Virus record (IMG/VR): IMGVR_UViG_3300017917_003053 | Location: 1 to 64,000 of that record | Length of the DNA stretch: 64,000 bases | Reading direction: 5' to 3' (one strand) | Source: a virus | Position numbers and translations under genes: made by a program | Notes under the pieces: model-generated | Told to the model about the DNA's origin: nothing | The model's database searches: none | What the model saw: the letters and a program-made list of their open reading frames with translations, nothing else | Shown here: piece by piece, positions 8 through 28,766 of the stretch | How positions within the stretch are numbered: the first letter of the stretch is position 1 | Layout: each line of letters begins with the position of its first letter

Positions 8-1667
8 ATGAGATTTTCACAAAAACGATTTGTTGATATTGGTCAGACTCTTTTTTTAAATTGGTTGCAGAAAATTTCTGCCCCACCTGATGTTACAGCG
101 GAAGATATGAGACAAGAGTTTAGCAAGGCTGCAAAACTGGCCTTTATGGCAGCAGAAGAATTTGCTTTAGTATTTGATGGTCAGGAGAAAAACAATGAAA
201 CTCTCTAAAGAAGAGATAGATAGTATCATAGTTAATGATATTATGATTGGTAATCATTTTAGGGCGGGATATTTAGAACTATATCCAGAACTATCTGAGG
301 ATATTGCTTTAGGAATCTCTTGTATTCAAGATTATAAGGATACTATTGATTGGGAGGATCAAGAAAAATATAACAGTATCAACACACGAATTCATAGACT
401 ATTACAATTTTACTACAAGATTTACGATTTAACTCATAGGACGAAAAATAAAAATGAAACTTAGAAAATTAATCATTACAGAAAAGATTGGCGAGATTGA
501 TTTTTGGTCTGATTTATGCGGATCTTTTGATCAAGTAATAGAAAATTTAAAAGTATGTAAAAATGTTTATAGTTCCAAGCATACCCTACAAGAAGGCGAA
601 GAAATTTATATAGACTATAATTCTACTTGGGATGAAGCAAGTTTAGATGTTATGCTTAAAAGATACGAAAATGATAAAGAATATGATAAGAGAGTAAAAA
701 AAGTACAAAAGGAAAAAAGTGTTAAGAAAAAGTTAAAAGAATCAGTAATAAACCAAGAACTTAAAGAGTATGAAAGGTTAAAAAAGAAATATGGATAAAA
801 TGAATCAATTAATAGCCTATTTATCGAATCAAATGGGCAAACCGGATTGTCCCATAATAATGGTTGATGATGTTACTGATTTTGGTATTGATGCTGTATG
901 GCAAAGGTGGGTAGAAATAAGATTCAATGATGGAACAACTCTGGAGTTGGTTGAAAAACCTGAGATGAAATGAAAGTTTATGCTATAGTTTGTGAATATG
1001 GTGCTGCGTCGATTTATGAGGGTGTAGAAATGGTTTGTAAAACTCGTAAGATCGCAGAGTCATACTATTTAAATGAGGATTTTATTGGTCGTCCTGTTCG
1101 TGTTGATGAGATGGTTGTTTGGGATAAAAAGTGGGAAAAGATTCCTAAAGCCCCTCAGTCCAGAAAGTCTGAAACAAGATTATCTAAGAAAAAGGCTAAG
1201 AAATGATAACCATACCTCGTTGGGAATATTATCTTCTTTATTTTATTGCGTTTATGCAATGTTTAAATTTTTTAGATAGATTATATGAATGGAGTATAAA
1301 ATGAAACTTGATATTGAAAGAAATGATTTGCTTCTTATTAGTGAAGCATTAGTTGTTTATCAGTCTGAGGTTGAGGATGATAAAACTGGCTATTATGGAT
1401 TTCCTTATTCAATAGAACGAATTCAAAAAGTATTAGACTACATAGAAAATGAATTGGATAATAATGATGAATAACTCCCATTCATTCAAAGCAGATTATT
1501 TTAACTTATTCATAAATAGTTATGATCCTGTTGATGGATTAAAGTATGAACATTCTATAATGCTTGCTCCTACAAAAAATCACGTTGTTAGTCCTCCTGT
1601 TACTAAAGACGAATTAAAGGCGTTAGCCGACTTTATTCTAAAGGTCGCTCTTGACAAGTGCCGATAA
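8..1667 (+). CDS. run of about 7 small hypothetical phage ORFs (8-208, 195-464, 454-798, 791-973, 970-1206, 1289-1474, about 1464-1667)
   Basis: Consecutive overlapping or abutting ORFs on one strand with ATGA-type junctions; no recognisable motifs. Confidence 0.7.
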
Positions 1668-1678
1668 GATGATATACT
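1651..1678 (+). promoter_or_regulatory. sigma70-type promoter with CCGATA spacer box
   Basis: TTGACA-agtgCCGATAagatga-TATACT, followed by SD AAGGAG and ATG at 1698. Confidence 0.85.
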
Positions 1679-1697
1679 TACGCCAAAGGAGACAAAT

Positions 1698-3095
1698 ATG
1701 ACCACAATGACAGAACAAGTGGCAAGTTATATCTATGACCATAATATAACTTTTGGAACTTATAACATTTTTGCTTGCTATGATAGCCTTGAAGATTATG
1801 ATGAGCGAAAAGTATCCTTTTATGATATTTATGAGAAGGATGGGTCTTGTGTAAATGAGGGCGATCCTCATTATACTTTTCCTTCTTGGCAAGAAATTTA
1901 TGAACTTTATTGGCTTCCATCTGTAAGAGAAGCATCCCAAACTTTCTCCAGAGATTTGAAAAAGGCTACAAATGAGGGACTTTAATACTGAACTTGATAT
2001 TGTGAGTGTTTTTATTAGAGATGCTCATAAATATGGTCTTGTACCAGAGGTTGTTCTTTTTGCTCTTATATATATGAAGGAGAATCCTGATAACAGTATT
2101 GAGGATGCTATGAATTATGGATTTTGGGAATGGATCAAGTAGCAGTTGACAACTGCCGATAAGTAGTGTATACTGGCAGCAGAACGAAGGAAACGAACTA
2201 TGGTATACTCATACAAAGGGTTAATGAGAGTTAATATGAACTATTACATTGAAAAGCATGATATGGAGATTATTCTTGACGCATTAGAGTTGCTTTACGA
2301 AAAAATGAAGCAAGAAAAAGATTATAGCAAGCATTACGCTATGCCATATTCTATTGAAGATGTTGATGGTCTTTTTCAGAGTTTTGATAACTCATTCAAG
2401 GAGGATTACGAATGATCTATCTTTATCTTAACGAAACAGAAAAATTAGCATCTATTGTGGCCGAACTTGTTAAACTGAATATGGGTGTTGTAGCCGAACT
2501 GCACGGTGATCGTTGGCATATTGAGGTAACTACATGAATACTGAATATTCTTTTAAAGATTTTGCTCACGAAGTTGCTGATTATATCGACGCCGAATATG
2601 ATGGTGCTGATATGATTAATCTTAATGATGATGAAAGAATGACTATTAAGAATATGCTGGATGCTCATTATCATTTTAATGATAGCGTGAGTAATGCTGC
2701 TAACTATGTTATTCGTTATCTTAGAGAAAGTAGGGCTTGGATTAAGGAAAACACGAATGAATCTGTTGACTGAAACTAAAAAAGTTCTTAAAGCGTATGA
2801 TAAAAATCCATCTGATGTTAAGTGGATTGGTTCACTCTCTTATGGTTATTTCGATTGGGAATATTTTTCAAAGATTGCCAATATTGATTATGACGATGGT
2901 TTTGGCGGTCAAGAGGTTGCCTCTGATCTAAAAATTGTTGGAGACGATTGGTGGCTTGAAAGACACGAATATGATGGTAGCGAATGGTGGGAGTTTAAGT
3001 CTCTGCCAAACAAGCCCGATCAACTCAAATATCCAAAAACATTAGTTGGTAGTGGTTGGTCAAGTCTTGCAGAAATGAATGATGAACAACCTTGA
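1698..3095 (+). CDS. small hypothetical ORFs (1698-1985, 1972-2142, 2236-2415, 2412-2537, 2534-2773, 2757-3095)
   Basis: ORF track plus two ORFs under 60 aa read directly from the sequence; ATGA overlaps. Confidence 0.7.
2146..2174 (+). promoter_or_regulatory. sigma70-type promoter with CCGATA box
   Basis: TTGACA-actgCCGATAagtagtg-TATACT. Confidence 0.85.
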
Positions 3096-3119
3096 CAACT
3101 GCCGATACTATGGTATACT
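3092..3119 (+). promoter_or_regulatory. sigma70-type promoter with CCGATA box
   Basis: TTGACA-actgCCGATActatgg-TATACT. Confidence 0.85.
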
Positions 3120-3158
3120 GCATCCATGACCTTTAACCCTAACATTGGAGATAAAACC

Positions 3159-3752
3159 ATGACTGATCTTAATATTCCGGCCTATTCGCTTATTTCTTAT
3201 TATCGTGACAAGAAGAATAATCCTCATGGAGTTCTTGTGGCTATTCCATCTGAAAGTGATGATGGTTTTAATATTGGATTTGCCCAGTGTCGAAAGACTG
3301 ATAAGTTTAGCAAGAAGATGGGTCTAAATATTGCTCTTGGACGAGCAAAGGTTGAGAGTCTTGAGAGTTGGGATAATGCCCCACATAATCTGCGTAAGAT
3401 GCTTCCTAAGTTTATTAAGAGATGCGAATCTTATTACAAGATTAAGGCACATTGAAAATAAAGGACTAATCCAATGACCGTTCAACAACTGCGTAATATG
3501 GGCTATAAGGTAAAGGTTCTTCATAATCGTCTTTATAATGGCTATCATGCTTGGCAAAATGGAGCAAGAGAGTATCTTTACAATAATGGATATACTGTTG
3601 ATCCAGATAGCAAGGGTGGTTCCACTCAGATAATTATTGATTCTCCAACCGGAGAACATTTTCGTGGCCTTGCTATTTGTAACAAGAAGGATAATTATGA
3701 TAAGAAAATGGGCGTAAGAATTGCTCTTGGGCGAAGCGGAGTTAATGTTTGA
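3159..3752 (+). CDS. two paralogous small proteins (3159-3455, 3474-3752)
   Basis: Both contain CxKxDx(F/Y)xKKMGxxIALGR. Confidence 0.7.
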
Positions 3753-4017
3753 GATGGATAATATCTTTGACTATTTTACTGCGTATCAACTTCGTCAAAT
3801 TTTTCAGCAAAAACATTGGCCTGAAGAATTTAAGGACGCTATGCACCAAGAAATAGCATACGAACTTTTAGATAGTTGGCTTGAAAGTGTTGACGAAGAA
3901 ACTTATAACGAAAGAATTCGTGGCATTATTGAGAATATGACTTATGGCTATGAGGATGATGATGGTAATGAGATGACTGATTTTGTTGTAAATGAGTCAA
4001 AATGAGTCAAGGCCGCA

Positions 4018-4046
4018 TTGACAAACGCCGATAACAGTGGTATACT
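4018..4046 (+). promoter_or_regulatory. sigma70-type promoter with CCGATA box
   Basis: TTGACA-aacgCCGATAacagtgg-TATACT; SD GGAGG before ATG 4069. Confidence 0.85.
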
Positions 4047-4269
4047 ACGTTCAACAACGGAGGAACTGATGAATTGGGTTTTTATTGTTTGTCGTGACAA
4101 CAGTATTGAACAGGTCAAGATTTTTAAGGATTTTTGGGAAGGTGCTAAGTTTACAGACTCTTTCCTTAGTCATATTAATCCTCACTTGAAGAATTTTCCT
4201 GCTTATAATCGCAATGAGAATTATAAGGATGGGAATTTGACTGTGGGACTCTATCGTGAGGGTGCGTAA

Positions 4270-4665
4270 TTGACTGGTTTAAATATCCAGTATCCTTGGT
4301 CTAATCTTTTAATTGATGGACTCAAAAGCGTAGAGACACGATCATATAGTTTACCATCAAAGTATGAAGGCGTTGAATTATATTTGGTCGAAACTCCTGG
4401 CAAACTTGGAAAATTTAAGGCCAGAGTTATTGGTACTATTACCTTTAGCCATAGTTTTAAATATCCAACTAAAACTGATTGGATTAATGACTATAATAGG
4501 CATCTGGTATCACAAGATGATCCACTTTATAGTTGGAACGATAAGCCAAAATACGGATGGGTAGTTTGTTCTGTCAAGAAATTTGACGAGCCTCTTGACA
4601 TTGTTGGCAAGCGAGGTATAATTTTTACTAGCGATCTGCGTACCATAAGGAGCGTATATGTCTGA
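4270..4665 (+). CDS. ASCH/PUA-like domain protein
   Basis: N-terminal LNIQYPWSNLLIDGLKSVETRS matches the ASCH signature (LxIxQPW...GxKxxExR). Confidence 0.8.
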   Translation: MTGLNIQYPWSNLLIDGLKSVETRSYSLPSKYEGVELYLVETPGKLGKFKARVIGTITFSHSFKYPTKTDWINDYNRHLVSQDDPLYSWNDKPKYGWVVCSVKKFDEPLDIVGKRGIIFTSDLRTIRSVYV

Positions 4666-7600
4666 TATTGATTACAAGTCTGCTGCTGCTGAATGTGCCA
4701 GATACATTTTTGATAGTGATTGTGAACAAATTAGTTATCAGGAATATATTGAGAATGGTAATGATCCACGCGATCATATTTTGTATCATGCTGCTTTTGT
4801 TTTGGGCGAATACAAAGAAGAATTTGATAATGATATTAGACTTTATTTGAATGAAATTTCTACTGGAGAATATAATCATGGGAATGGGTAGTTTTGCTGT
4901 TGGGTCTTTTGTGATCGAATATAAGGATCTAAAAAAGATTTGTCCAGATGAAATTAAGGCTATTGAGAAAGAGAAAAATTTTAAGGAAATTGGTTGGGGA
5001 AATATTGGACGATGGCTTGCTTGGGATGATCCAGATAATATTACCTGTATATTTGACGATGAAGTTGCAGAAGAACTTTTGCAAACTTACGATAAACTAA
5101 TTACTAATCTTAAAAACACTTTCAATAAAAAGACCAAACTAACTCTGTACTTTGATAGTTATGATGAAGAAGGTGGAGATAGATATGATAATCCCGGCGA
5201 TAAGGATGGTTGTATTTTCTGTGTAGAAGGAATGGTTCAACTGACTCCTGCTGGCGAGAAGTTTAAGGACATTATTACTGAAAGAAAATGGACCCAATTT
5301 GGGTGAAATATGGACAATCAACAAGAAAACAAATCTTGGGATACTCTTTATAATGAATATCCCGAAATGTTTAGTAATCGTAACAAGTCTCCGCGAGAAT
5401 CTTGCATGGCTTGGGGATGCGAGATAGGAATGGGTTGGTATGATATTCTGGATGCTATTTGTTGGAAAATTAAACAGCATGAGGAAAATATCGCTTGGGA
5501 TACAGAGTTCAAGCAAAAAAGTAATCCAGATTACAAGAGCGACTATGTTCCTGTCAAGTTTGACCAAATTAAAGAAAAGTTTGGTGGACTTAGGATTTAC
5601 TATTCTGGTGGAGATGATTGTGTTAATGGTATGGTTGCTATGGCTGCGACGATGAGTTATAAGATTTGTGAAAGTTGTGGAGAAAGAGGCGAACCTAATA
5701 AGAATGGATGGATTGTTACTCTTTGCGACAAATGTAGGAACAAAACTTATGACCAAACTCCACTCAATAATGGTGGATGATAAAGTTATTGAAGTCCATT
5801 ACAACAATAGTTTAAAAAACAAACCTTATCTAGTCAGAGTATTTGATTATGATAATTCTTATCCAAATGAATTTAGACTGAACGAAACTGAATTACAGGA
5901 CTTATACAAGATATTAAACTATAATGAGAACTTGGAAAACTAAAACCATTAAAACGGTTGATGATGTTCATTGTGACGCTTGTGGCAAAAGTACCACAAA
6001 CTATAATGATGTTGGGCCAGACTATGCAACCCTTGAAAGTTGCTGGGGATATGGTTCATCTAATGATGGAAGCAAGTTCAACATTGATCTTTGTGAAAGT
6101 TGCTTCTTTGAAGTATTAACTTTTCTCAAAGAAAAGCGACGAAAAGTATTAGGCCCATTCAAATATCCGTATGACAATGATCCTCTAGATGGCATAGAGT
6201 ATTTGTAATGGATAATTTCTCATATTTAACCGCCGCTAGTATCTTTGCTACTTATGTGGTGATAGATATGTTGTACGCTTGGTATATTATGAGCGTCAAC
6301 AAGAAACGAGCATTGACTGCGGCTTTCCTTACCGCTATAATTTACAGTCTGCTGGCTTTCGGAGTAGTATCATATAGTAAAAACATCTACTATTTAATTC
6401 CGTTAGCCTCTGGAGCATTTACTGGAACATATCTTATGGTAAGATTTAAGGAGTAATATGAAAGCCACATTTGAATTTGATCTGCCCGAAGATGAACACG
6501 AATATGATATAATGAACCAAGCATATAAAACGCACAGATTCCTTCAGCAATTTAGTGAAGAATTACGCACTTGGGAAAAATATGGACATGAATTTACAGA
6601 TGCACAGGATGCTGTATCTAAAATCAGAGAAGAATTTTACAAAATACTCAATAACTATCAAGTAAATCTGGATTTGTAAAATGACTTTAACTCAAGAAGA
6701 TATAAACGATATTAAATCTATCGTTGTTGAAATTCAACAGTTAGCAGTAGGGTTTGATTACCATGATAGTAAAGTTGCTGAGTTATGCTATCATGTTGAT
6801 ATGAGCATGAGAGCAATATTGGAAATAATTAATGGACCTAGTGGAAAGATAGAAAGAATGATATGAGTTGGTCATATAGAGTAATAAAAACAGTTACTAA
6901 AATTCCTCTTGGGGATATTGATACATCTTATGCTATTCACACAGTTTACTCTGATGAAAATGGAGACATTGTAAATATATCAGAACAACCAACATATCCT
7001 ATTGGTGACGATACTGAAAATCTAGTATGGCAATTACAAAGAATGATGGAGGCTTGTAAAAAACCCGTACTTGATTATAATACTGGAGAAGAAATATGAG
7101 CAACTATAAAATCTGCAAATTTGTTGATGGAAACGGATCAGAATGGTATCAGATAAAAAAGAAGGGCTGGTTATTTTGGAGTTATCTCTCAGGATATGAA
7201 TTTAGTCCATATGATTATCCTCCTTTAAGAAGAATATTCAAGTTTGAATCTGTGGAGAAAGCATCAGAATATATTAAAAATGATATAGAATACATGAAAG
7301 CAGGACAAATTAAGAAAGTAAACTGTTTTGATTATGATACAAATAGGTAATAGAGACATAAGCGATATTATTTCACTAATAGTATTAACAATAGCAATAT
7401 TTCTTTTTTCTCTAGTTTGTATAGATCGTTTCAGTTCTCTACATAAAAAGGATACAAAAAAACCCATCAAACCCAAACCAGTTGATAGACAAACAATAAC
7501 ATCAACAGAAATTACTGGGACTGCGGAAAGTATTCATCCTTGGGGACGCACAGAAGTTGTCCCCATGAAAAGCATAGAGTTAGAATATTTTGAATATTGC

Positions 7601-9463
7601 GATGAATGGGTTATGTATGGTGATGTTGTTCAGCCAGTTGGTCGCAAAGGTTATTTTATGCCTGTAATGAGAGGCAATCTTAATCTTAATGTTAAAGACC
7701 TTACTCAAACATGGGTTGCACATGAGAAATATGAAAGTGGCCTAATAGAAAACCCAGAAACTTTTGAGGATTTTAGAGTAGCAGATATTAGAGTAAAAGA
7801 AGGAAAAATTATTGATATAAACTACTTTCATTATAGATTATTACCAGACCATACATGGAATATAATAGCATCATGGAAAGCAATAGTTAATCCAGAAAAA
7901 ATAAAGGAACCAAATGATGAACCTAACAACTGAACAAAAGTTTGCTATCCTTTGGTGTTTCAATAATGCCATGAAATATATGGAAACTGATGAATATGAT
8001 TCTGACAAAACGATGGTTGTAAATGGAGTCAATATTAATCAAACTATCACAGAATTACTCAAAGATAGATTATTTGTATGAGTTACTATCCCTGCCCAAA
8101 TTGTGAAGAACCAATAGGCGATCTAATTAGTTGGGAAAATCTTACAGACCAATATAATAGTTCAAAACAGTTGTATTGTCCGCATTGTAAAATTCCACTA
8201 AGATTAAACTATGATGAGGAATGGGATGGAGAGGAAGAATATTGTTATTGGAGTTTTGAAAGGAAAGAAATAATATGAATGCAAAAGACTTTGAAAAACT
8301 AATACAGATACGAAAACTTCTTAAAGAAGCATATGACCATTATTTTGAGTTCAGCGATGGATACTGTAAAATTAGTGAAGGACATATTGGTTTAGATTTT
8401 GGAGACTACTGGAAAGACAAAGATTGTGAATGTAAAATTACCGGAGTTGAAATATACTCCTATGTTCTAGGGCCGTCCAGAAGCCACTATTTTGATAATC
8501 TGGACGAAGCACTAGAAGCAGTAAAAGAGTGGCACAGAAACGAAATGGCAGCATCCTATGATGAATACGGCGAACCACAAAAACAAGGATATTTGGAGAA
8601 TCCAGATGCAAATTGATATTAGCAAAAATGAAGCGTGGAAAATACTAGATGCGTTAGCCTCATATAAAAAAGACTACGCATTAAGTGGGGCTGTTGTTAA
8701 AACTATTGATAGTGCTATTAAGAAACTAAAGGATTTTATAGATGAAAATTAATAATAAAAAACATATATCTTTAACAGCAGAAGATGTTAAGGACTTACT
8801 AATTAAACAACTATATCACTCTCAGGGCATTAGTGGTATATTCAAAGTTGATTTTAAAATTGTAAAACAAGCAATTCCATCTCAATATCCACAAGACTCT
8901 AATTATATTAATATTTTTGATGGAGCAGAAATAACGGTGGACTTAAATGAAAAATGAATCTATAAATTTTCTGCTAATTATGATATCTTATTTTACTATA
9001 GGACTACTATTGTCACAAACTTATATCCAAAACCAGAGACTCAAAGTAATGAATGACTCTATTAATAGACTCATTATGATAGAAATTATTACAGAGGAAC
9101 AGTTCTCTATTCTTAGTGACAAAGTTCAACAATTAGAACGCAACAATAACAGAATTAGTCTAAAGTAAAGGTTGACAACCGCCGATAGTGTGTTATACTG
9201 GGTTTGTACGCTAACAGGAGACAAAAATGAATAGATTTGATCTAGAAGAAAAGATTAATCAGACCTATAATTTTGTAGATACTATTAACGATATTAGTTA
9301 TGGTGTTATGGAAGTGGGTATGACTAATGATGAAATTGTTAATGCTCTGGATGGATTAGCGGTTATGCTTAAACTTCATACTCAAAAACTATTCGATACT
9401 TTTACTCAGGTTCATCAACTTGATAATCATAAACCTAAATATGAAATAGATTTTCCGGGCTAA
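4658..9463 (+). CDS. array of about 18 small hypothetical ORFs, including small membrane (6208-6456) and Zn-finger-like (5310-5780, 5924-6208, 8078-8278) proteins
   Basis: ORF track; CxxC pairs; 5310-5780 carries the widespread phage motif QIKEKFGGLRxY...ICExCG. Confidence 0.65.
9172..9199 (+). promoter_or_regulatory. sigma70-type promoter with CCGATA box
   Basis: TTGACA-accgCCGATAgtgtgt-TATACT; SD AGGAG before ATG 9227. Confidence 0.85.
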
Positions 9464-10196: not shown

Positions 10197-10197
10197 T
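10170..10197 (+). promoter_or_regulatory. sigma70-type promoter (no CCGATA box)
   Basis: TTGACC-16 bp-TATAAT with extended -10 TG. Confidence 0.7.
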
Positions 10198-15543: not shown

Positions 15544-16278
15544 ATGACTACTAATTTTATAGTATTCATTTTATGTAAGAATATTTCAGATAGAATTGAA
15601 ACATTTTCTCAAATATTAAGACTCAATCATATAGAATATTCTATTATTTGTGATGATTGTTCTATCAAAGATGATTTAAGTTTGCTAAATCAAGGTTTTT
15701 ATAATTTAACGCGATCTCCATATATTAAAAAGCCCAGTGCTTGGGATAAGTCTTTTTATTCTATAGATAAATATGCTTGGCTAGAAAAATATCAATATTT
15801 CTATTTTATAGAAGAAGATGTTTATAGTAAAGACTATCATACAATAGTCTCTTTTATATTATATGCTCAAAAACTTGTAAACATTGATTTTTTATCCCAA
15901 AAAATTAAACCTAAATCTCATCATCCAACATGGAAACATTGGAAAGAAGATTATATTTCACACCTAAAAAGTCCACATCAATCATTTAATCCATTATGTA
16001 GACTATCCTCTAAACTTATTAAACAGGTCTTAGAATATAAATTAATACATAACCAATTTAATTTTCATGAGATATTATTTCCATCTTTATGTATTGAACA
16101 TAATATGACTCATTTAAATTATATGGAAGATGAAAAATTACAAAAATATGTTGGATACATTAGATATAATCCTATTATTTTAGAAAATGATATTTCAGAT
16201 AATCTTATATATCATCCCGTAAAATATTCCAAATCTGACAGAGAAAAAAGTATAGTTCCGCTTGACGAAAGACGATAG
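15544..16278 (+). CDS. putative GT-A-like glycosyltransferase
   Basis: AWDKS...YFYFIEEDV (ExD motif), CRLS, HEILFPSL, IYHPVK; very AT-rich. Confidence 0.55.
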   Translation: MTTNFIVFILCKNISDRIETFSQILRLNHIEYSIICDDCSIKDDLSLLNQGFYNLTRSPYIKKPSAWDKSFYSIDKYAWLEKYQYFYFIEEDVYSKDYHTIVSFILYAQKLVNIDFLSQKIKPKSHHPTWKHWKEDYISHLKSPHQSFNPLCRLSSKLIKQVLEYKLIHNQFNFHEILFPSLCIEHNMTHLNYMEDEKLQKYVGYIRYNPIILENDISDNLIYHPVKYSKSDREKSIVPLDERR

Positions 16279-16289
16279 TATGGTATACT
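16262..16289 (+). promoter_or_regulatory. sigma70-type promoter with variant (GA)CGATA box
   Basis: TTGACG-aaagaCGATAgtatgg-TATACT; SD GGAGG before ATG 16307. Confidence 0.8.
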
Positions 16290-17363: not shown

Positions 17364-17822
17364 ATGAAAATCATTAATAAAACGATTCGTAAATCTTACC
17401 AGAATTGGAGTCCTAATCCTATGATTAGGTGCTACCATTATGCTGCCGCATTTGATGGTAACAAGATGATTTGTTTTAGCAAAAACAACCCGATTAAAAC
17501 CAATGCGAGAGCGTATCGTATTGGAGAACAATTTAATTTGCCTAAGTATAAGGAATTCCCATTTGTTCATGCTGAATCTCATCTTATTTCTAAATTGTTG
17601 GATAAGTATAATACCATTGATTCTAATTGGTCAGTTGTTGTTATGCGAATTAATCGAAAAGGACTAATTTTAGGAAGTAAGCCTTGTGAGAATTGTGGAA
17701 AACTTTTATGTGCAGTTGGTCTGAATACAGTTTATTATAGTAATGATGACGGCACTTTTACTGACGGTGTTGGCAATTTGATTGAAGCAGAGTCCTTGAC
17801 AATGCCGATGCTCATGGTATAA
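17364..17822 (+). CDS. cytidine/deoxycytidylate deaminase-fold zinc protein
   Basis: HAE...SKPCENC zinc motif; VYYS. Confidence 0.85.
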   Translation: MKIINKTIRKSYQNWSPNPMIRCYHYAAAFDGNKMICFSKNNPIKTNARAYRIGEQFNLPKYKEFPFVHAESHLISKLLDKYNTIDSNWSVVVMRINRKGLILGSKPCENCGKLLCAVGLNTVYYSNDDGTFTDGVGNLIEAESLTMPMLMV

Positions 17823-17823
17823 T
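17796..17823 (+). promoter_or_regulatory. sigma70-type promoter with CCGAT box
   Basis: TTGACA-atgCCGATgctcatgg-TATAAT; SD AAGGAGG. Confidence 0.85.
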
Positions 17824-18061: not shown

Positions 18062-18498
18062 AAAATAAAATGACTTGGTTAGATTTATATAATTTTCTTT
18101 ATGAAAAGGCTAATGATATTAATGGTGAAGGAAGTTTTCCTTGGCAAGAATCTGTACAAGTATTTGATTTTGAAACCCTAGAATATTATAATACAGATTT
18201 TATTGAAATGCCAAATAATAAAATTTCTCTATCCATTGATACTGCACAAATTACGGAGCCAACTTATGGATCTTGAAATTGAAAGCCTTCTTTTTAAGCA
18301 AGTAGAAAAACCAAAACATCATCTTATGACTAAGATTATTAATGTTTGGGAAAATCGTTACAGAATTAATGTCTATATTGAAATTGAAGAAGATAATCTA
18401 ACTAAGAAGCGTATTCATAGTAGTTATTTTTGTCACTATAATCCTGGCAAACTTCAAATTATGAGTGGCTCTAGCGGAATTTTTCTAAAGACTACCCC

Positions 18499-18526
18499 TT
18501 GACAGGACCGATAACTGAGGTATACT
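18499..18526 (+). promoter_or_regulatory. sigma70-type promoter with CCGATA box
   Basis: TTGACA-ggaCCGATAactgagg-TATACT; SD AGGAG. Confidence 0.85.
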
Positions 18527-18556
18527 TAGAACATAACGCTAACACAGGAGATAACC

Positions 18557-19245: not shown

Positions 19246-19662
19246 ATGAATGAAGAAGAAATGTATGCTATTACTAATTTAGAGGGCTATGCTCTTGAAA
19301 TGAGACAGGCTGCTGCTAATAGTTTGTGTGAAAATAATGAAGATAATTTAGATGATTATATTAGTATTTCTCAAATGATTAATCTTGTTAAGGAACATTG
19401 TGTTGGTTTCGATAGCAACAATAGACCTTTATTGAATGAAGATACAAATGAAGAAATTTATGAATCTACAGTAATATGGATACAAAATGTGGGTTTGGCT
19501 AAACTAGCCGCAAAAGATTTGGTTCAGTGTGCTTGGGATACAGATACCAACGAAATGGTATTTTGGGCTAATCCAAAAATAACAGACACAAAAACCAAAA
19601 AGAGAAAAACTCATGGTACAACTAACAAACGAAGAAATAAGAAGAAAGATCAGGGATCTTGA
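19246..19662 (+). CDS. hypothetical protein, paralog of 34040-34444
   Basis: Shared C-terminal LxxLxxxxLVxxA(W/Y)DxxxxxxVFW. Confidence 0.65.
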   Translation: MNEEEMYAITNLEGYALEMRQAAANSLCENNEDNLDDYISISQMINLVKEHCVGFDSNNRPLLNEDTNEEIYESTVIWIQNVGLAKLAAKDLVQCAWDTDTNEMVFWANPKITDTKTKKRKTHGTTNKRRNKKKDQGS

Positions 19663-19806
19663 AGATAAAATACATGATTGTAAATCATATATCTCATCAG
19701 ACTTCTGCGTAAGTTGTAATGAAATGTATAATAACATTCAAAAATATGAAGCAGAAATATCGACACTAAAGCAATTGTATCACAACGATTGATTTTGTTT
19801 CAAGTG

Positions 19807-19834
19807 TTGACAGGCCGATGGACGATGGTATAAT
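19807..19834 (+). promoter_or_regulatory. sigma70-type promoter for the tRNA
   Basis: TTGACA-ggCCGATggaCGATgg-TATAAT, 10 nt before the tRNA 5' end. Confidence 0.85.
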
Positions 19835-19844
19835 ACAAGAACAT

Positions 19845-19918
19845 GGGGCGTTGCCGCCGGTAGTGGCACATACTCTTATAAGGTATTCAAAAGGTAGGTT
19901 CGACTCCTACACGCCCTA
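19845..19918 (+). tRNA. tRNA-Ile(UAU), atypical D arm
   Basis: Acceptor GGGGCGT/ACGCCCT+A; anticodon arm ATACT-CTTATAA-GGTAT; T arm GTAGG-TTCGACT-CCTAC; CCA not encoded. Confidence 0.75.
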
Positions 19919-20159
19919 TTCCATATTAGGTGTATTCTAATATAGCCTTCCAGATATTATCCCACCTAATAGAAAGAAAAACATGAAATATAGATTATTG
20001 TTTATTTTTTTAGTTGCCATTTTATTTGCTTCATTAACTATGAATGTTATTCATTCAGAATCTTTAGATGCTGCACATAAAACAATCGAAATACATGATA
20101 TGGTTCAAACAAAAGTAATCAATAGTCTGCATGATAGACTTATGCAATTGGAAGATTGA

Positions 20160-20514
20160 GGGTGCGTAAAGGTTTCGACTACATATCGGAGATTATATTA
20201 GCAAGTAGTGGTTGATCGACAGGCCACTTTAAAAGTCGATTAAACGCTTTAACTGGCGAAACTCAGTTAGCACTTGCTGCCTGACAAAAAAGGGCAGTAA
20301 CAGACTGCGATACCGAATGAGGGTAGGGATCAAAAGTCTGTCGTTAAATCCCTCTGCACTTACAATATCCAACGGGTTGTAGGTTAAGAGCAGTTGGTAA
20401 GGCTAGAAAAATCTTGTGTGTTCTATATTCTAGTTTAACTCATGAATACAATAAACTTGTAGAAGATGTTTTTGATGCTATGATAGGACGCGGGTTCGAC
20501 TCCCGCCGCATCCA
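20160..20514 (+). ncRNA. ssrA: tmRNA
   Basis: Acceptor GGGTGCG/CGCATCC with G3-U70; T arm GCGGG-TTCGACT-CCCGC; tag frame 20255-20284 encodes (A)GETQLALAA-stop; about 355 nt. Confidence 0.93.
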
Positions 20515-20556
20515 TTAAAAAGTGTATTTATTAGTATTTACTTACTACTAATAAAT

Positions 20557-21156
20557 ATGTTTAAATTAATTACAGCCTATAATAATAGATATGAAACATT
20601 AGCCAAAATTGTTACTCCAATTTTTCGTGACTATTGTACATATCATAAATATCAATATCAGGAATATATTATACCAGATAACTATTCTAGGCCAGCACCG
20701 TGGGCAAAAATAGAATATCTTCTTAAAGAAATAGATCAAAGACCCAATTACTATACTTTATGGATAGATATTGATGCTGTTATAGTCAATAAACAAATTG
20801 ATTTATGGTCATTTATCAAACCTAATAAATTTTTATATCTGTCCAAAGATCACAACAATATCAATAGTGGAGTTGTATTGATAAAAAATCATACAGAAAT
20901 TAAAAAACTTCTTAAAAAAACATGGACATTAACACAATATCTTAATCATGAATGGTGGGAACAGGCGGCTTTAATACATCTTATTGACCAAAACTTTAAT
21001 AATATCAAATATCATATTGAATATATTCCATCCATAAAATTTAATACCATAGATCAAGAACCTAGTCAAAGTTCTTTTATAGCACATTTGGCGGGTCCAT
21101 TTATGGAAAGAAAATTACACTATCTTACAAAATATTCTCAGACGTACTGGACTTGA
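20557..21156 (+). CDS. GT34-like (galactosyltransferase GMA12/MNN10-type) glycosyltransferase
   Basis: PWAKI, WIDIDA (DxD), INSGV, WWEQAAL and FIAHLAG motifs. Confidence 0.8.
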   Translation: MFKLITAYNNRYETLAKIVTPIFRDYCTYHKYQYQEYIIPDNYSRPAPWAKIEYLLKEIDQRPNYYTLWIDIDAVIVNKQIDLWSFIKPNKFLYLSKDHNNINSGVVLIKNHTEIKKLLKKTWTLTQYLNHEWWEQAALIHLIDQNFNNIKYHIEYIPSIKFNTIDQEPSQSSFIAHLAGPFMERKLHYLTKYSQTYWT

Positions 21157-21205
21157 CAAGACGCAACCATAGTGGTATATTGCATAGACACAGGAGTAAA
21201 ATTAG

Positions 21206-22522: not shown

Positions 22523-23494
22523 ATGAAAAATATACTATTAATTAAAAATACAGAATATCATTTTGAAGTACTTTTAGCACTATATCAAACCATTAAAAAT
22601 ATAGGCTATAATCCTATTATTTATGAAGCCGCCCCGGATGTATTCTGTCAACATAAATTTTTACAGACACATAATTTATCTATTAAAACAGATCATGATA
22701 TTTCAGATATCTATTGTGGTATTATAGTCTCTACATATCCGAATCCGACCACCAATAATAGAGATCCTATTCCTTATTTAAATGATCCTATATTTGATAA
22801 ATTGAAACGAATAATTTATCTTACTCATAGGTTTAAATATTCAGAAGATTTTACAGGGTTTATTAATTCTTCAAATACAATATCTTTATCTCCTTTGTCT
22901 AAAAAAGTTAATATAGATCATCTACACTTATTAGATTATCCATTCTCTGGAAAGAATAACTTTGATGAAAAGAGAATAAAACTTACAGTACAATCTCATT
23001 TTCAATACAAAAATCGTAATCCAAAAATTCTACTCAATATAATAGAACAGATACAAAATAAAATACATATTAATATCATCGGAACACATACCGATACAAT
23101 ATATTCTGCTATACCAAAGTCATTAATTCAGTCCAAAGACATTACTTTTTCAATACTTGATTCTGTTACGGAACATAAATTATATGAAATCCTAATAAAT
23201 TATACAGATTTTATTGTGAATTGTTTTGATAGTTCTACAAGATATAGCACTTATTATACAGAAAGATATAGTACGAATTTCTGTCATTCTATGTGCCTCA
23301 ATAAGCCAATCATTTGTCATGAATTTTTTCAAAACATACACCATATACCAGGAATCTATTACTCTAATAAATTACCTCATACATATATATCAAACAAAGA
23401 TTATGACAAATTCATCTATGATTTTAGTTTAATCAAACCTAAATTATATGAAGAAAACATAAATGTCTTTGATCAAAAAATTCAAAAGTTATAA
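22523..23494 (+). CDS. hypothetical protein, possibly a GT-B-like glycosyltransferase
   Basis: AT-rich, adjacent to a GT2 gene; C-terminal KPII motif is weakly GT-B-like. Confidence 0.4.
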   Translation: MKNILLIKNTEYHFEVLLALYQTIKNIGYNPIIYEAAPDVFCQHKFLQTHNLSIKTDHDISDIYCGIIVSTYPNPTTNNRDPIPYLNDPIFDKLKRIIYLTHRFKYSEDFTGFINSSNTISLSPLSKKVNIDHLHLLDYPFSGKNNFDEKRIKLTVQSHFQYKNRNPKILLNIIEQIQNKIHINIIGTHTDTIYSAIPKSLIQSKDITFSILDSVTEHKLYEILINYTDFIVNCFDSSTRYSTYYTERYSTNFCHSMCLNKPIICHEFFQNIHHIPGIYYSNKLPHTYISNKDYDKFIYDFSLIKPKLYEENINVFDQKIQKL

Positions 23495-24229
23495 ATGATA
23501 ATGAATAAATTTGTTTTTATTATACCATCATTTAATAATGAAAAGTGGTGTGAAAAAAATATTCTATCTATCTTAGATCAAGATTACCAAAATTGGAGAA
23601 TAATTTATATAAATGATTGTTCTATAGACAATACGGTATTTCAGATCAATTATTTAGTCGATAAATATCATTTACAAAATAAGTTCACTCTAATTCATAG
23701 CGAATATAATGAAGGTCCGGCTGCATCAAGATACAAAGGATATACACAAACTGAAGATAATGAAATATGTTGTTTTTTAGATGGAGATGATTGGCTATAT
23801 AGTAAAAAAGCGTTAAATATTATTAATGCATGTTATGAGTATGGGTATAATTATACATATGGTTCTTATGTAAGATTTAAAAATAGTCAAATACACAGCC
23901 ATCCTTTACCAACTATTAGTATAGACTATCCTTTTATTAGATCATCATCTCAATGGAGATGTCAGCATCTAAGAACTATGAGGTCTTATTTAATTAAAAA
24001 CATAGACTACAAAAAATATTTACAAATTAATGATCAATGGATTAGATACGGGACAGATATGGCTGAGAGTATCTATGTATTAGAACAAAAAGATGTTTTT
24101 CCATATATGATTACAAGTCCATTGTATGTCTACAATATAGACAATTCTATCTCCTACGATACCTCATATTTTTGTAATACAAATATCATATATAAGGATC
24201 AAATCATCAAACATATTAGGCATCTATGA
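23495..24229 (+). CDS. family 2 glycosyltransferase
   Basis: FIIPSFNNE, INDCSIDNT and FLDGDD motifs. Confidence 0.9.
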   Translation: MIMNKFVFIIPSFNNEKWCEKNILSILDQDYQNWRIIYINDCSIDNTVFQINYLVDKYHLQNKFTLIHSEYNEGPAASRYKGYTQTEDNEICCFLDGDDWLYSKKALNIINACYEYGYNYTYGSYVRFKNSQIHSHPLPTISIDYPFIRSSSQWRCQHLRTMRSYLIKNIDYKKYLQINDQWIRYGTDMAESIYVLEQKDVFPYMITSPLYVYNIDNSISYDTSYFCNTNIIYKDQIIKHIRHL

Positions 24230-24735
24230 TAATAGATCAAAATAATATCATATATCTTATTAAATATATTTCTCAATTATTTGATAACAAATGTATTCTA
24301 ACAGGTAGTGCTGCTGATTTTTTGCATTTAAACTATCAATATGTACAAGACATAGATTTTGTAGTCGAACATAATTTATATTATGACATTAGAAAATTAT
24401 CTAGTATCAATAAAAATCATCCATTTAATTTATTAACAAGAATAGGATCGTTAAAAAATACAAAAGACCATCATTTGCTACATACTTATTTATATGATAA
24501 TATTTATCAAATTGATTTACTAATTAAAGAACAAAATCTCATAAGTAAAAATATACAAACACTACAAATCAATACTCAAACTATAAACTTATTCAGTCCA
24601 GAAACCAGACTTGAACAACTTAAAAAATATAATTATAGAAATACTATTCCTGAGTTTCATATAAAATATGCCAATATTATGGCTAGGATTGCTCAATATA
24701 ACGAGATGCTAGAAAAACTGAATAGTGGCGATTGA
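24226..24735 (+). CDS. putative nucleotidyltransferase (pol-beta superfamily)
   Basis: ILTGSAA...DIDFVV (GS...DxD). Confidence 0.55.
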   Translation: MIIDQNNIIYLIKYISQLFDNKCILTGSAADFLHLNYQYVQDIDFVVEHNLYYDIRKLSSINKNHPFNLLTRIGSLKNTKDHHLLHTYLYDNIYQIDLLIKEQNLISKNIQTLQINTQTINLFSPETRLEQLKKYNYRNTIPEFHIKYANIMARIAQYNEMLEKLNSGD

Positions 24736-24760
24736 CAAGCCGATACCTGTATGATAGAAT
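24732..24760 (+). promoter_or_regulatory. sigma70-type promoter with CCGATA box
   Basis: TTGACA-agCCGATAcctgtatga-TAGAAT. Confidence 0.8.
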
Positions 24761-24788
24761 CAGAGCATACACGCTTTTGGAGGAAGTT

Positions 24789-25493
24789 ATGATTGTTGCA
24801 AACACTGTTATTCCGATTCAGAATACTACAATGGACAAGACCAAGGCCGATATTTTCTTTCAAACTTTTCCGCGAGACAAGGTTGTTTCGTATAAGGAAT
24901 ATTGGGAGAGTGTTCGTCCTCAAAATGTCGAAGATATTTTTCGTCGTTATCTTTTTGCTTATTGCTCTGTTCATACTACATGGAAGGGCAATTGTGCAGG
25001 ATATAACGCTATCAAGAATTTTGATGAGTGGATCGACAGCAAGGAAACTCTGCTAAATAAACTACACAAAAGCGGAGTCGGTCTACACAATAATCGTACT
25101 AATTATATTTGGGATTTTAGTGAGAAGTTTTGGGCTAATCCTAAAGATTTTTATTTTACTACCAAGAAGGGTCATGTCAAGAAGCGTGATAGTATTCTGA
25201 GCAAGATCAGCGGTATTGGTTTGGCTAAAATTAGTTTTGCTCTTGAGATGATCCATCCTAATGAGGCAAGAGTATTGTGTGGTGATATTCATCAACTTCG
25301 CCTTTACGATATGGAGCATCTGAAATATAATAAGAGTAAGAACGGATCGACCATGTATAAAAAAATGGAACGTCATTGGATGGTTAATTGTGGTAAGCAC
25401 AAGGTTCCATCCTATATTGCAAGATCAATCTATTGGGATCATTTGCAAGATAAAGATGATAGCAGATACTGGAGTTTTGTATTGGAGAACTAA
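24789..25493 (+). CDS. HhH-GPD superfamily DNA glycosylase-like protein (Ogg-like)
   Basis: HhH motif ISGIGLAKISF followed by GDIHQLRL; SD GGAGG at the 24789 start. Confidence 0.65.
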   Translation: MIVANTVIPIQNTTMDKTKADIFFQTFPRDKVVSYKEYWESVRPQNVEDIFRRYLFAYCSVHTTWKGNCAGYNAIKNFDEWIDSKETLLNKLHKSGVGLHNNRTNYIWDFSEKFWANPKDFYFTTKKGHVKKRDSILSKISGIGLAKISFALEMIHPNEARVLCGDIHQLRLYDMEHLKYNKSKNGSTMYKKMERHWMVNCGKHKVPSYIARSIYWDHLQDKDDSRYWSFVLEN

Positions 25494-25608
25494 ATAATGT
25501 CTAATGGCAAAGGAAGTAAATTTAGGCCGAAAACTGTGGATTACGGCACATGGGATAAAAACTGGGAAAAAATTTTCGGCAAACAGAAAAAAAATTCAAG
25601 GACGGGTG

Positions 25609-25636
25609 TTGACAAGTCGATAACACAGGATAGAAT
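25609..25636 (+). promoter_or_regulatory. sigma70-type promoter with TCGATA box
   Basis: TTGACA-agtCGATAacacagga-TAGAAT. Confidence 0.8.
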
Positions 25637-25713
25637 GAAAGAGTCAATGAGAGAGAATCAGTCGCGTGACTGACTCAAATTGACAAAGGTTGGAAATGAT
25701 TTGGAGGTTGATT

Positions 25714-25995
25714 ATGGCTGAAGTTACTACGGTTGAGAAGCAAAAGCGTGTTCGTTGTTCCGATGAGCAGTTCCTTGAGGCTGTTTATTCTTCCAGAACT
25801 TATGCGGAAATCGCAAGTAAGACTGGTCAGAAGGTTGCCTCAACAATGGCACGATATGCTCGTACCAAGGATGCTCTGAAGGAAAAGGGTATTGAACTTC
25901 CTACTATGGAACGTGCAAAGCCCGTTAAGACTGTCGATAATGTTGAGGCTATGGCTGAAGTGGTTCGTAGAATCAAGGCTAGCACTAACACTTGA
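25714..25995 (+). CDS. putative helix-turn-helix DNA-binding protein
   Basis: RTYAEIASKTGQKVASTMARYAR is HTH-like; SD GGAGG. Confidence 0.55.
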   Translation: MAEVTTVEKQKRVRCSDEQFLEAVYSSRTYAEIASKTGQKVASTMARYARTKDALKEKGIELPTMERAKPVKTVDNVEAMAEVVRRIKASTNT

Positions 25996-26085
25996 CATAC
26001 TTGTAATCGACTACTATAGTTAATATGATGAGGCACACTAATATCAACCTCAAATCAAAGATTATAGTAGTCGGTTACTTTTTAT

Positions 26086-26158
26086 GGGAGTGTAGTCCAA
26101 AGGCAGAGACAGTGGACTTAAAATCCATACAGTGTGGGTTCGACTCCCACCACTCCTA
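26086..26158 (+). tRNA. tRNA-Leu(UAA) with short variable loop
   Basis: Acceptor GGGAGTG/CACTCCT+A; anticodon arm GTGGA-CTTAAAA-TCCAT; T arm GTGGG-TTCGACT-CCCAC. Confidence 0.9.
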
Positions 26159-26181
26159 CTAATTTATCTTAATATAAACAA

Positions 26182-26565
26182 ATGTCTAGACAAACTAAAA
26201 AATGCAATAAATGTAAAATAGAGTTAGACATATCGTGCTTTTCTCCTTCTGGTGGAGGGAAATACAAAAGACCGGAATGTAGAAAATGTGCATCTAAATT
26301 AGCAAAAATTCGTAAAAAAATTAGATCAGAATCTGGAAATCCTCCACAAGATTACCAATGTCCAATATGTCATAGAAATGCAGATGATCTTCATGGTACT
26401 GGTGGACGAGCAGGAACATGGGCAGCAGATCATAATGACGAAACTGATAGATTCAGGGGTCATTTATGCCACAATTGTAATCGTGCAATAGGTAATTTCA
26501 ATCACGATAAAGAAAGATTGTGGAGAGCAATAGAATATTTAATGAAAGATGAGGCATCACAATGA
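26182..26565 (+). CDS. endonuclease VII-family (His-Me finger) nuclease
   Basis: CPIC...DHND.TDRFRGHLCHNCNRAIG plus an N-terminal CxxC..CxxC finger. Confidence 0.85.
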   Translation: MSRQTKKCNKCKIELDISCFSPSGGGKYKRPECRKCASKLAKIRKKIRSESGNPPQDYQCPICHRNADDLHGTGGRAGTWAADHNDETDRFRGHLCHNCNRAIGNFNHDKERLWRAIEYLMKDEASQ

Positions 26566-27163
26566 ATCAAAATTCTAATCCAATAGATTATCTCATAGAA
26601 TTATGTGAGACTGCTATCAATACTGGTAAATGGAACTTAACCAAATTTACTATTCTTAATGCCAAAGACGAACTTCGTCGCCTGAGACAAACAAATAAAA
26701 ATGTCAATTATGATAATGTCGCTTGGGCTAGTATTAATGATCGTGGAGATTTGTTTAACTTGACTACCCACTATAATAGGTTCCAAGACGAAAATACCAT
26801 TTTACCTCTTTACTGTGACAAGCAGGAGTTTAAAGAAAAATATGACAAGTTATCCAAACAGACTATTTAGAGGTTGGTGTTCTAATGAAGGTAATCAACG
26901 ATCTCATATTCTTCATTATCATGTATATACTGTTAGAGATATTACTGACTATAATGGTGGAAAAATTCCAGAAGAAGTAAATACCCTAGAAGAATACTTT
27001 AATACAGACTTGTTGGGTATAGATGAACCATACTATGCGGTATATGCCACATTCAAAATGGACATACCAAGAGGGCCAATTAAAATTTTTGAAACACCCG
27101 ATTTGAGGGTTGCAATTTATGTTGTGGAACAACTCACTGGGAATAAGGTAAAAGAAAACGAAC

Positions 27164-27631
27164 ATGAAACCTTGGATGGATGATAAAGAGATAGATAAAA
27201 TAGTATCTTATTTAAGACCAGAACATAAAGTTTTTGAATGGGGATGCGGAGGATCAACATTATATTTTAGTCAATATGTTTCGTCATATCGCTCTATTGA
27301 ACATAATAAAAAATGGTACTATGAGTTATACAAGTTAAAAACGCCCAATATTGACCTGCATCACTATTCTATCAAAAATAATCCTGATGAATATATTAAT
27401 GCTATATCTAATTATCCAGAACAATATGATATTATTTTAATTGATGGCAGATACAGAGTTAAGTGTGCTTTAACAGCAAAAAAGTATTTGATAAATAATG
27501 GCATTTTATTAGTACATGACTATTTCAATCGACCATATTACTCTGATATAGAAAAATATTATTCTCTAATAGATTCAATTAAAGATACAGAACAAACACT
27601 GGCTATTTTTAAAAATGAAATACACAATTGA
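27164..27631 (+). CDS. class I SAM-dependent methyltransferase
   Basis: VFEWGCGGST, SIEH, DIILIDGRYR and LVHD motifs. Confidence 0.85.
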   Translation: MKPWMDDKEIDKIVSYLRPEHKVFEWGCGGSTLYFSQYVSSYRSIEHNKKWYYELYKLKTPNIDLHHYSIKNNPDEYINAISNYPEQYDIILIDGRYRVKCALTAKKYLINNGILLVHDYFNRPYYSDIEKYYSLIDSIKDTEQTLAIFKNEIHN

Positions 27632-28136
27632 TACAGAGAGTGATGGGGAGGGCGGTTGTGCTGAGTTCTATAGAATAAAAGAAAACCCAAATTTAGGATT
27701 TAAACAATTTAGAAATAAAACATTTGCTACATCAGCATATAAGAAGCAAAAAATGCTGAGTAAGTTGGGATTGGCTCCCAAAGTATATGGAAAAGTTTGT
27801 AAAATCAAAATTGAATATCCTCATTTTTCATCAGAAACAAATTGGGGATATATCACAGAAAAAGCCAAAATCTGTAAACCAAGTTTAATGGAAAAAAGAT
27901 TGAAACAAATTCAGTCATTGGTTGAAGATATTGAAAAAAATACCAAATTAAAATTTTGGGATTGTCATTATTGGAATATTGGATATATAACTAGAAAAAA
28001 TAAGGCTAAACTAGTCTGTATAGACACTGGCACAGAAAGTTTTGACCCAGATTGTAATGCTTGGGGTAACGAAAACCCTGGGCCAAAATGCACAGAATGT
28101 AATAACTTTTTTTGTGAATGTTCCAAATACTACTAG
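27615..28136 (+). CDS. minimal protein-kinase-like fold protein
   Basis: Gly-rich GEGGCA, GFK, APKVY, DCHYWN (DxHxxN) and CIDTG. Confidence 0.6.
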   Translation: MKYTIDTESDGEGGCAEFYRIKENPNLGFKQFRNKTFATSAYKKQKMLSKLGLAPKVYGKVCKIKIEYPHFSSETNWGYITEKAKICKPSLMEKRLKQIQSLVEDIEKNTKLKFWDCHYWNIGYITRKNKAKLVCIDTGTESFDPDCNAWGNENPGPKCTECNNFFCECSKYY

Positions 28137-28738
28137 TGGTGTATAAAACTAGACGAGTTATTTAAATTTTATTAGGAGATAAAATATGTCAAATGACTAT
28201 TCAGATATCGTAAATCAAATTAAGGAAATGAAAGAAAATGATCTGAATGTGTCTAAAGATATACTCAAAATAAAAAAATCAATCAAAGATATTGAAGACA
28301 AAATATATAATATTGATGATACAGTAAGCAGAATGTTTGAGATATTAAATACTATCTCTCTATTTATAGAGGAAGCAGAAGAACAGGGCGATTTGGATTC
28401 AGACGAAGAAGCAGAAGAATCATGGAATCCATATAGTATACAATCAGAATATGATGAATATTATGATGACGAAGATGATGACTCAGAGAGTGGATATTAA
28501 TGGCTAGTTTAGCATTGTTGGTTACTTTAATGCTTTTATTTGTGGTTTTATTGGGTCCAGCCACATACTTATTGAGTTTGTCATCTTATATTCCTGAATT
28601 TATTATTTGGATATTAGGATTATTGAGCATAGGAATAGGGATATATTGGTTTTTCTTGCCCATTAATTTTTTAAGATTTTTTGGATTACTTACAGCATAT
28701 TTAGGATGGTTAGCGATACAAACTAAAGACAAAGGGGG

Positions 28739-28766
28739 TTGACAACCGATAACAGTATGCTAAGAT
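28739..28766 (+). promoter_or_regulatory. sigma70-type promoter with CCGATA box upstream of rIIA
   Basis: TTGACA-aCCGATAacagtatgc-TAAGAT. Confidence 0.8.

Follow-up and report, generated by a model that had tools for sequence, protein, structure and literature searches.

The early genes of an uncultured lake phage, IMG/VR record IMGVR_UViG_3300017917_003053, are served by sigma-70-type promoters, and a second two-box element, T[A/C]AAG-N15/16-[G/A][C/T]CGATA, is laid over or beside a number of them. The window analysed here comprises bases 1–64,000 of this record, which is 153,002 bp long, is rated 100% complete and has a guanine-plus-cytosine (GC) content of 34%; its plus-strand genes run from ~144 kb across the record ends to ~84 kb, and the virion genes occupy the minus strand from 84 to 144 kb. 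The element is real and strand-specific, keeps a fixed spacing that is independent of the sigma-70 register, is restricted to the early region, and is conserved in the phage family. We propose that its CCGATA box would serve as the −10 element of an additional promoter, which would belong to the sigma-28 (FliA/SigD) class and be independent of the sigma-70 one, and that the phage family would lay such promoters over or beside its strong sigma-70-type early promoters. The simplest reader of the element would be a FliA-type sigma factor of the host, a proposal for which we see the chances as evenly balanced.

A two-box element with fixed spacing and free register

The sequence-only reading had picked out twelve promoters with a CCGATA-like box between the two hexamers, and all twelve are present (Table 1). 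Their −35 hexamer is TTGACA in 11 cases and TTGACG in one, nine have a spacer of 16 bp and three one of 17 bp, and the −10 hexamer is TATACT, TATAAT, TAGAAT or TAAGAT, preceded by TGn in 9/12, all in line with sigma-70 promoters of the extended −10 kind (TTGACA, a 16–18 bp spacer, a TATAAT-like −10 and TGn). The box, [N][N]CGAT[A/G], begins 0–3 nucleotides (nt) past the −35 in each of them. In seven promoters (−35 at 1651, 2146, 4018, 9172, 18499, 25609 and 28739) it forms part of the bipartite element. Here and below, the distance is counted as the nucleotides between the pentamer TMAAG (TAAAG or TCAAG) and the 8-mer box. CTAAAG or TCAAG had been reported upstream of eight promoters; the pentamer indeed stands in register (15 or 16 nt) at these seven, but at the eighth, 19807, the TCAAG at 19800 is only 9 nt from the box and thus out of register. 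The seven promoters that had been named as devoid of the box (4595, 10170, 14202, 21153, 25992, 37434 and 57169) do lack it.

As a bare hexamer, CCGATA is weakly enriched in the window (22 observed, 13.7 expected). When only promoter spacers are considered, YCGAT occurs within the first 10 nt in 15 of the 31 strong early promoters, a strong enrichment over shuffled spacers (mean 0.3, maximum 3). For the bipartite element, the whole record holds 16 sites on the plus strand and none on the minus strand, with 0.075 expected by chance; the distance is 15 nt in 12 of these and 16 nt in four, and no site at 11–14 or 17 nt was found in this genome. All but one of the 16 lie within the early region, at 144.7–153.0 kb and 1–29 kb of the record, the exception being a site at 63911, inside an open reading frame, which may be a chance occurrence since it scores just 12.4 bits. 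The promoter type of the twelve goes on at the far end of the record (148344, 149110, 149666, 150005, 150616 and 152875), so the set is a feature of the early region and not 'genome-wide', as had been supposed. With a position weight matrix (PWM) built from the relatives only, 13 sites that score 16 bits or more are detected on the plus strand of this genome and none on its minus strand, several of them 27–75 nt ahead of start codons.

The same spacing is seen when this genome is taken together with five large relatives (six genomes, 189 kb of early regions). Pentamer and box stand 15 nt apart 36 times and 16 nt apart 25 times, any other distance from 4 to 30 nt is represented by at most two sites, and the opposite strand of these regions holds no site at 15 or 16 nt. 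The expectation of a fixed, non-random spacing near 15–16 nt was therefore correct. With respect to the sigma-70 promoter, by contrast, the element is mobile: the box starts at +0 to +3 from the −35 in 35 sites and at +5 to +8 in three, lies directly past the −10 in 11 and upstream in tandem in three, and a further 10 sites have no good sigma-70 promoter. Wherever the box is nearer to the −35, the pentamer is equally further upstream (box offset/TMAAG-to-(−35) gap pairs of 1/8–9, 2/7–8, 3/6–7, 0/10 and 5/5), so the movement of the box relative to the −35 that had been noted earlier is real, amounts to 0–3 nt or ~22 nt, and is compensated by the pentamer. A box distance that stays constant in several registers against the sigma-70 hexamers argues for an independent promoter-like unit. 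Because box and pentamer move together, the box is ruled out as a feature belonging to the sigma-70 spacer. Readings of TAAAG as a MotA box, or as an UP element that goes with the −35, were likewise rejected, since it is the box, not the −35, whose position TAAAG follows.

We have termed class 1 the promoters with the box inside the sigma-70 spacer and class 2 those with the box directly after the −10. Five class-2 promoters are found at 144.7–147.6 kb, in which TATAAT is immediately followed by the box (GTCGATAT or GTCGATAA), the pentamer sits inside the sigma-70 spacer 15 nt from the box, and the element covers the sigma-70 start point. Such coverage, and an overlap with the sigma-70 promoter that is too close for joint occupancy, would suit a binding site rather than a start site, namely an operator bound by a protein of the phage or of the host, or else a decoy titrating the host sigma-28 holoenzyme. 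We nevertheless consider this improbable, since the element is asymmetric, always points along transcription and has a promoter-like two-box geometry, since it is also found in tandem upstream of sigma-70 promoters or without a good one, and since it is as far from start codons as promoters usually are.

Conservation was followed beyond the six genomes. A scan of IMG/VR for TTGACA-N3-GCCGATAA gave 133 matches, 55 of them with a well-placed TATA[AC]T and 30 of those 55 with the pentamer too. Whole-record searches of 18 related IMG/VR records found sites in 15, with 132 on the early strand and one on the other strand, while a reversed control pattern matched five times in the same records. Conservation is position-specific across genomes whose proteins are just 30–60% identical, and the sequences between the conserved boxes differ freely. 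These results bear on the possibility of a passive likeness, in which the sites would be copies of a mobile regulatory cassette kept alike by recombination, with a box that has no reader. Repeated promoter cassettes are known building blocks of early regions in large phages, as in the promoter-early stem-loop (PeSL) cassettes of the T4-type phages RB49 and phi1, where strong sigma-70-like early promoters are likewise repeated amid small accessory genes (PMC2839356), and several of the class-2 promoters at 144.7–147.6 kb are closely alike. Recombining copies would not, however, be expected to diverge freely between boxes conserved position by position, nor to keep the half-site spacing while shifting against the sigma-70 hexamers, and we give this explanation very little credence. 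The extra element also differs in kind from that of PeSL, being a two-box promoter-like signal instead of a stem-loop, with boxes that have no obvious self-complementarity as judged by eye.

Relatives G013, G016, G018, G019 and G003 share an orthologous site, TAAAG-GNCAC...GGGAAATG-GCCGATA, with no sigma-70 −35 inside, which is a candidate sigma-28-only promoter; its counterpart was not found in this genome. BLAST with the composite promoter also pointed to Bacillus phages pW2 and Sophrita. Both were discarded: the matches are ordinary sigma-A promoters, and the two genomes are not enriched, as they hold one and no bipartite sites, respectively.

Comparison with bacterial sigma-28 promoters

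The consensus of the phage element, (C/T)T(A/C)AAG(T)TT - 12/13 nt - G(C/T)CGATA(A/T), can be set beside those of E. coli sigma-28, TAAAGTTT-N11-GCCGATAA, that is TAAAG-N14 (PMC2859248), and of B. subtilis SigD, TAAA-N15-GCCGATAT (PMC5200910). In the 62 sites of the six genomes the box reads G (90%), C or T, CGATA, and then A or T (83%), in agreement with the sigma-28 −10, GCCGATAA, and the pentamer is TAAAG in 43 sites and TCAAG in 18, in agreement with the sigma-28 −35, TAAAGTTT. The search pattern had fixed the R, Y and CGATA of the box and left the flanking positions free. The base ahead of the pentamer, which the search did not fix either, is C or T in 94% of the sites, and the three bases past the pentamer, again not fixed, are T in 48%, 45% and 60%. 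Since the free positions agree with the sigma-28 consensus, the element looks like a sigma-28 promoter. The suggestion that two promoters, one of the sigma-70 and one of the sigma-28 type, are superimposed thus finds support at the sequence level, both from the fixed distance and from the match at free positions, although TAAAG-N15, which had been given as the established sigma-28 consensus, is off by one from the TAAAG-N14 of E. coli. The class 3 flagellar promoters read by E. coli and Salmonella FliA or by B. subtilis SigD have the same half-sites, flanking preferences, orientation and two-box geometry; the phage element differs from them in its location in the early region of a lytic-type phage, in its nesting within sigma-70 promoters, and in its 12–13-nt spacer.

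The modal spacing of the phage sites is that of Bdellovibrio bacteriovorus, whose attack-phase promoters, as determined by 5′-end sequencing, read TTAAG-N16-CCGATA (PMC3627812), equal to 15 nt in the present notation, and in which two thirds of the attack-phase program is under the control of FliA (PMC3627812). In 101 Bdellovibrionota genomes the exact motif is frequent, with up to 42 sites per genome. In three other genomes of this phylum, 113 exact sites were found as against 4 for the controls, ~70% of them at 15 nt and ~28% at 14 nt, and the same TAAAG and TCAAG variants are both used. The C. difficile fliC promoter has a 15-nt distance as well (PMC3865298). With B. bacteriovorus, the Bdellovibrionota genomes and C. 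difficile fliC all showing 15 nt, the 12-bp spacer has cellular precedents, whereas none for the 13-bp spacer was found among the bacterial genomes sampled, which were those of Pseudomonadota and Bdellovibrionota. The phage sites differ from those of Bdellovibrio in that 14 nt is never used and 41% are longer by 1 bp, and the many-site Bdellovibrionota genomes have ~51% GC, compared with 34% in the phage. Bdellovibrionota genomes G344, G350, G366, G374, G376 and G378 hold 16–42 exact TAAAGTT-N-GCCGATA sites each, with spacers mostly 1 bp longer than those of Pseudomonadota; these counts and spacers suggest that the FliA regulon is large and that the optimal spacer is particular to the phylum.

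Possible readers of the element and the host

Early phage transcription is normally described as the capture of the host housekeeping sigma factor. A second two-box promoter signal at fixed spacing implies that two forms of the host RNA polymerase can probably initiate transcription of the early genes in this phage family. Early transcription units would be startable by either holoenzyme, with two start sites ~11–13 nt apart in the nested form, and such dual promoters would secure early expression both in sigma-28-dominated (flagellated, free-swimming, non-growing) cells and in growing cells. If this is true, the state of the host, swimming or growing, would be built into the first step of infection by this phage family, and the host must carry a FliA-type sigma factor that prefers a 12–13 bp spacer. 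The composite promoters would then be compact natural dual-sigma promoters for study, and the difference in sigma-28 spacing between bacterial phyla could serve as a host-lineage marker. No relevant paper on phage promoters read by sigma-28, or on early promoters of the present kind, was found in literature searches.

The sequence-only reading had thought of motile swarmer versus sessile cells. A real analogue is found in the attack and growth phases of Bdellovibrio, where transcription in the free-swimming attack phase depends largely on FliA promoters. Since the FliA promoters mapped for that phase show the spacing that is modal in the phage sites, the FliA of the host may resemble that of Bdellovibrio. 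That the hosts of the phage family are bacteria whose life stages are governed globally by sigma-28, for example Bdellovibrio-like predators, is a further step taken by analogy, and we hold it to be unlikely. In such a case the dual promoters would be an adaptation for the takeover of both a non-growing, sigma-28-programmed cell and a growing cell, and these phages would be the first among large phages to be linked to predatory bacteria, and their early program the first of any phage to be coupled to a flagellar sigma factor.

Several observations weigh against a host FliA as the reader. In five of the twelve listed promoters (3092, 16262, 17796, 19807 and 24732) the box has no pentamer in register. 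The spacer between the two octamers is 12 bp (59%) or 13 bp (41%) and never the canonical 11 bp; the phage family thus never uses the 14-nt distance of E. coli, B. subtilis and most Pseudomonadota sites. Among the matches listed for 301 Pseudomonadota genomes, 17 of the 24 of the TAAAGTT type have the 11-bp spacer (14 nt) and none has 16 nt, and the 16-nt distance is rare even in Bdellovibrionota. The metagenome-assembled genomes (MAGs) that hold contigs of relatives belong mostly to non-flagellated lineages, with FliA present in one of six (a Silvanigrellaceae MAG, which also has flagellins, at ~51% GC versus 34% for the phage). Finally, the sole sigma-like protein common to all six genomes is a gp55-like protein of the phages themselves, and, being followed everywhere by a protein with a helix-turn-helix (HTH), it could in principle form a two-part phage reader of the element.

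The phage has no FliA-family gene by profile search (best score 22.9 bits, cut-off 189.6). Its 186-amino-acid sigma protein is a genuine member of the sigma-70 family (TIGR02937, 55 bits) and has the size of an extracytoplasmic function (ECF) sigma factor; the region 4.2 helix, VTREAVRQ, is like those of RpoD (VTRERIRQ) and RpoS and unlike that of FliA (VTESRVSQ), and this protein may read TTGACA-type −35 boxes. Homologues with 49–51% identity are found in two of the five large relatives, and no region-4 sigma was detected in one 91%-complete relative, though it has 13 bipartite sites. The gp55-like protein consists of a sigma region 2 with a Cys-rich insert and has no HTH; in all six genomes its gene is directly followed by that for a conserved 271-amino-acid protein with an N-terminal sigma-4-like HTH. 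This arrangement may represent a sigma system that is late or made of two parts, or alternatively a small terminase subunit.

From this inventory, the element might alternatively be a phage-specific 'middle' promoter, read by the gp55-like, region-2-only sigma factor, possibly together with the HTH protein; it would prolong early expression once the host sigma-70 promoters had been shut off. The two proteins are present and syntenic in all six genomes, and a 15/16-nt spacing unlike that of most bacterial FliA promoters is what might be expected of a reader with a different geometry. The T4 early genes that also carry middle promoters (MotA/AsiA) are a precedent. The gp55-like protein is, however, not FliA-like (FliA_WhiG E = 0.075, the best matches being to generic ECF and SigB/F/G region 2), it has no sigma region 4 with which to read TAAAG, and its gene is the first of the leftward block that continues into the terminase and virion genes, on a strand that has no bipartite site. 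The 186-amino-acid sigma, with its RpoD-like −35 helix, is found in some relatives only, and an exact sigma-28 consensus in both halves is more simply accounted for by a cellular FliA. The two phage sigma-like proteins therefore fit poorly as readers of the element, and we look on reading by the phage itself as the main rival explanation, though a rather doubtful one. The likeness to T4 is also limited: its middle promoters (a MotA box at −30 plus a sigma-70 −10, with AsiA) likewise give early genes a second mode of initiation, but here the −35 hexamer is kept, and the box is not fixed at −30 and ranges from the spacer to +1 and to an upstream tandem position.

On the virion-gene strand, TTTTTATATAG occurs at record 113985 and 133310 (minus strand), 60 and 89 nt upstream of two genes of the virion block, and a third TATATAG, without the T run, at record 116340 is 117 nt upstream of another minus-strand gene. 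This is a possible late promoter of the gp55-like sigma factor, resembling T4 TATAAATA, with too few copies (n = 3) to count.

Returning to the host FliA proposal, we have also looked for the host directly. Relatives of the terminase are found in MAGs labelled Rickettsiales, Alphaproteobacteria, Flavobacteriales, SAR202, Silvanigrellaceae and 'bacterium', which are inconsistent lineages, and no exact TAAAG...GCCGATA site is present in the Silvanigrellaceae MAG. The phage transfer-messenger RNA (tmRNA) resembles a second tmRNA (tag ADTSVLALAA) on a contig of the Flavobacteriales MAG, probably another phage contig, and not the cellular tmRNAs of the Flavobacteriales and Silvanigrellaceae MAGs. 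Against 131 Bdellovibrionota genomes, nearly all matches of the phage tmRNA cover the generic 3′ end only. The tmRNA was thus rejected as a pointer to the host.

Coordinates and other features of the record

Table 1. Promoters of the early region and other features. Positions are those of the record, which within bases 1–64,000 are also those of the window; distance, nt between TMAAG and the box; bits, PWM score.
Feature	Position	Strand	Parts	Remarks
Composite promoter, class 1	1639..1678	+	TAAAG 1639-1643; -35 TTGACA 1651-1656; box GCCGATAA 1660-1667; -10 TATACT 1673-1678	distance 16; 24.5 bits
Composite promoter, class 1	2135..2174	+	TCAAG 2135-2139; -35 2146-2151; box GCCGATAA 2155-2162; -10 TATACT 2169-2174	distance 15; start codon 45 nt past box; orthologous site in relatives L035 and L075
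Sigma-70 promoter, box only	3092..3119	+	-35 3092-3097; box GCCGATAC 3101-3108; -10 TATACT 3114-3119	TMAAG at 15 or 16 nt from box not found
Composite promoter, class 1	4007..4046	+	TCAAG 4007-4011; -35 4018-4023; box GCCGATAA 4027-4034; -10 4041-4046	distance 15; orthologous site in relative L090
Composite promoter, class 1	9161..9199	+	TAAAG 9161-9165; -35 9172-9177; box GCCGATAG 9181-9188; -10 9194-9199	distance 15; start codon 46 nt past box
Sigma-70 promoter (TTGACG), degenerate box	16262..16289	+	box GACGATAG 16271-16278; -10 TATACT 16284-16289	no in-register TMAAG
Sigma-70 promoter, degenerate box	17796..17823	+	box GCCGATGC 17804-17811; -10 TATAAT 17818-17823	no in-register TMAAG
Composite promoter, class 1	18486..18526	+	TAAAG 18486-18490; -35 18499-18504; box ACCGATAA 18507-18514; -10 18521-18526	distance 16; 20.0 bits
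Sigma-70 promoter, degenerate box	19807..19834	+	box GCCGATGG 19814-19821	upstream of tRNA-Ile and tmRNA gene
Sigma-70 promoter, box only	24732..24760	+	box GCCGATAC 24739-24746; -10 TAGAAT 24755-24760	no in-register TMAAG
Composite promoter, class 1	25596..25636	+	TCAAG 25596-25600; -35 25609-25614; box GTCGATAA 25616-25623; -10 TAGAAT 25631-25636	distance 15; 17.7 bits
Composite promoter, class 1	28724..28766	+	TAAAG 28724-28728; -35 28739-28744; box ACCGATAA 28745-28752; -10 TAAGAT 28761-28766	upstream of rIIA; distance 16; box abuts -35, TAAAG shifted upstream to match (10-nt gap)
Possible sigma-28-type site	63890..63918	+	TCAAG-N15-ACCGATAA	no sigma-70 promoter
186-amino-acid sigma-70-family protein	48689-49249	+		
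gp55-like sigma	143109-143777	-		L013 3109-3777
271-amino-acid HTH protein	142318-143133	-		L013 2318-3133
tRNA-Ile(TAT)	19844-19919	+		
tmRNA	20160-20517	+		full-length, one-piece
tRNA-Leu(TAA)	26086-26159			

The record encodes rIIA, a DNA ligase, a ribonucleotide reductase and a split DnaE-type polymerase, and its terminase is remote kin of Bacillus and Clostridium phage terminases only. In nucleotide and protein searches of a phage collection, no close cultured relative was found, all matches being remote. The tmRNA scores 116.6 bits with Rfam and has the tag peptide GETQLALAA. Sigma-54-like boxes (TGGCA-N6-TTGC) are clustered at record 144697–148287, where seven (five on the plus and two on the minus strand) fall within 3.6 kb, compared with one in the rest of the genome; this cluster is a hint that the host has a wide range of sigma factors. 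Downstream of the class-2 promoters, at record 144786–146790, polypurine leaders (AAGAGAAAGAAAGAGAGAAAGAGA-like) follow the GTCGATAT box, and such leaders are present also at the equivalent promoters of relatives.

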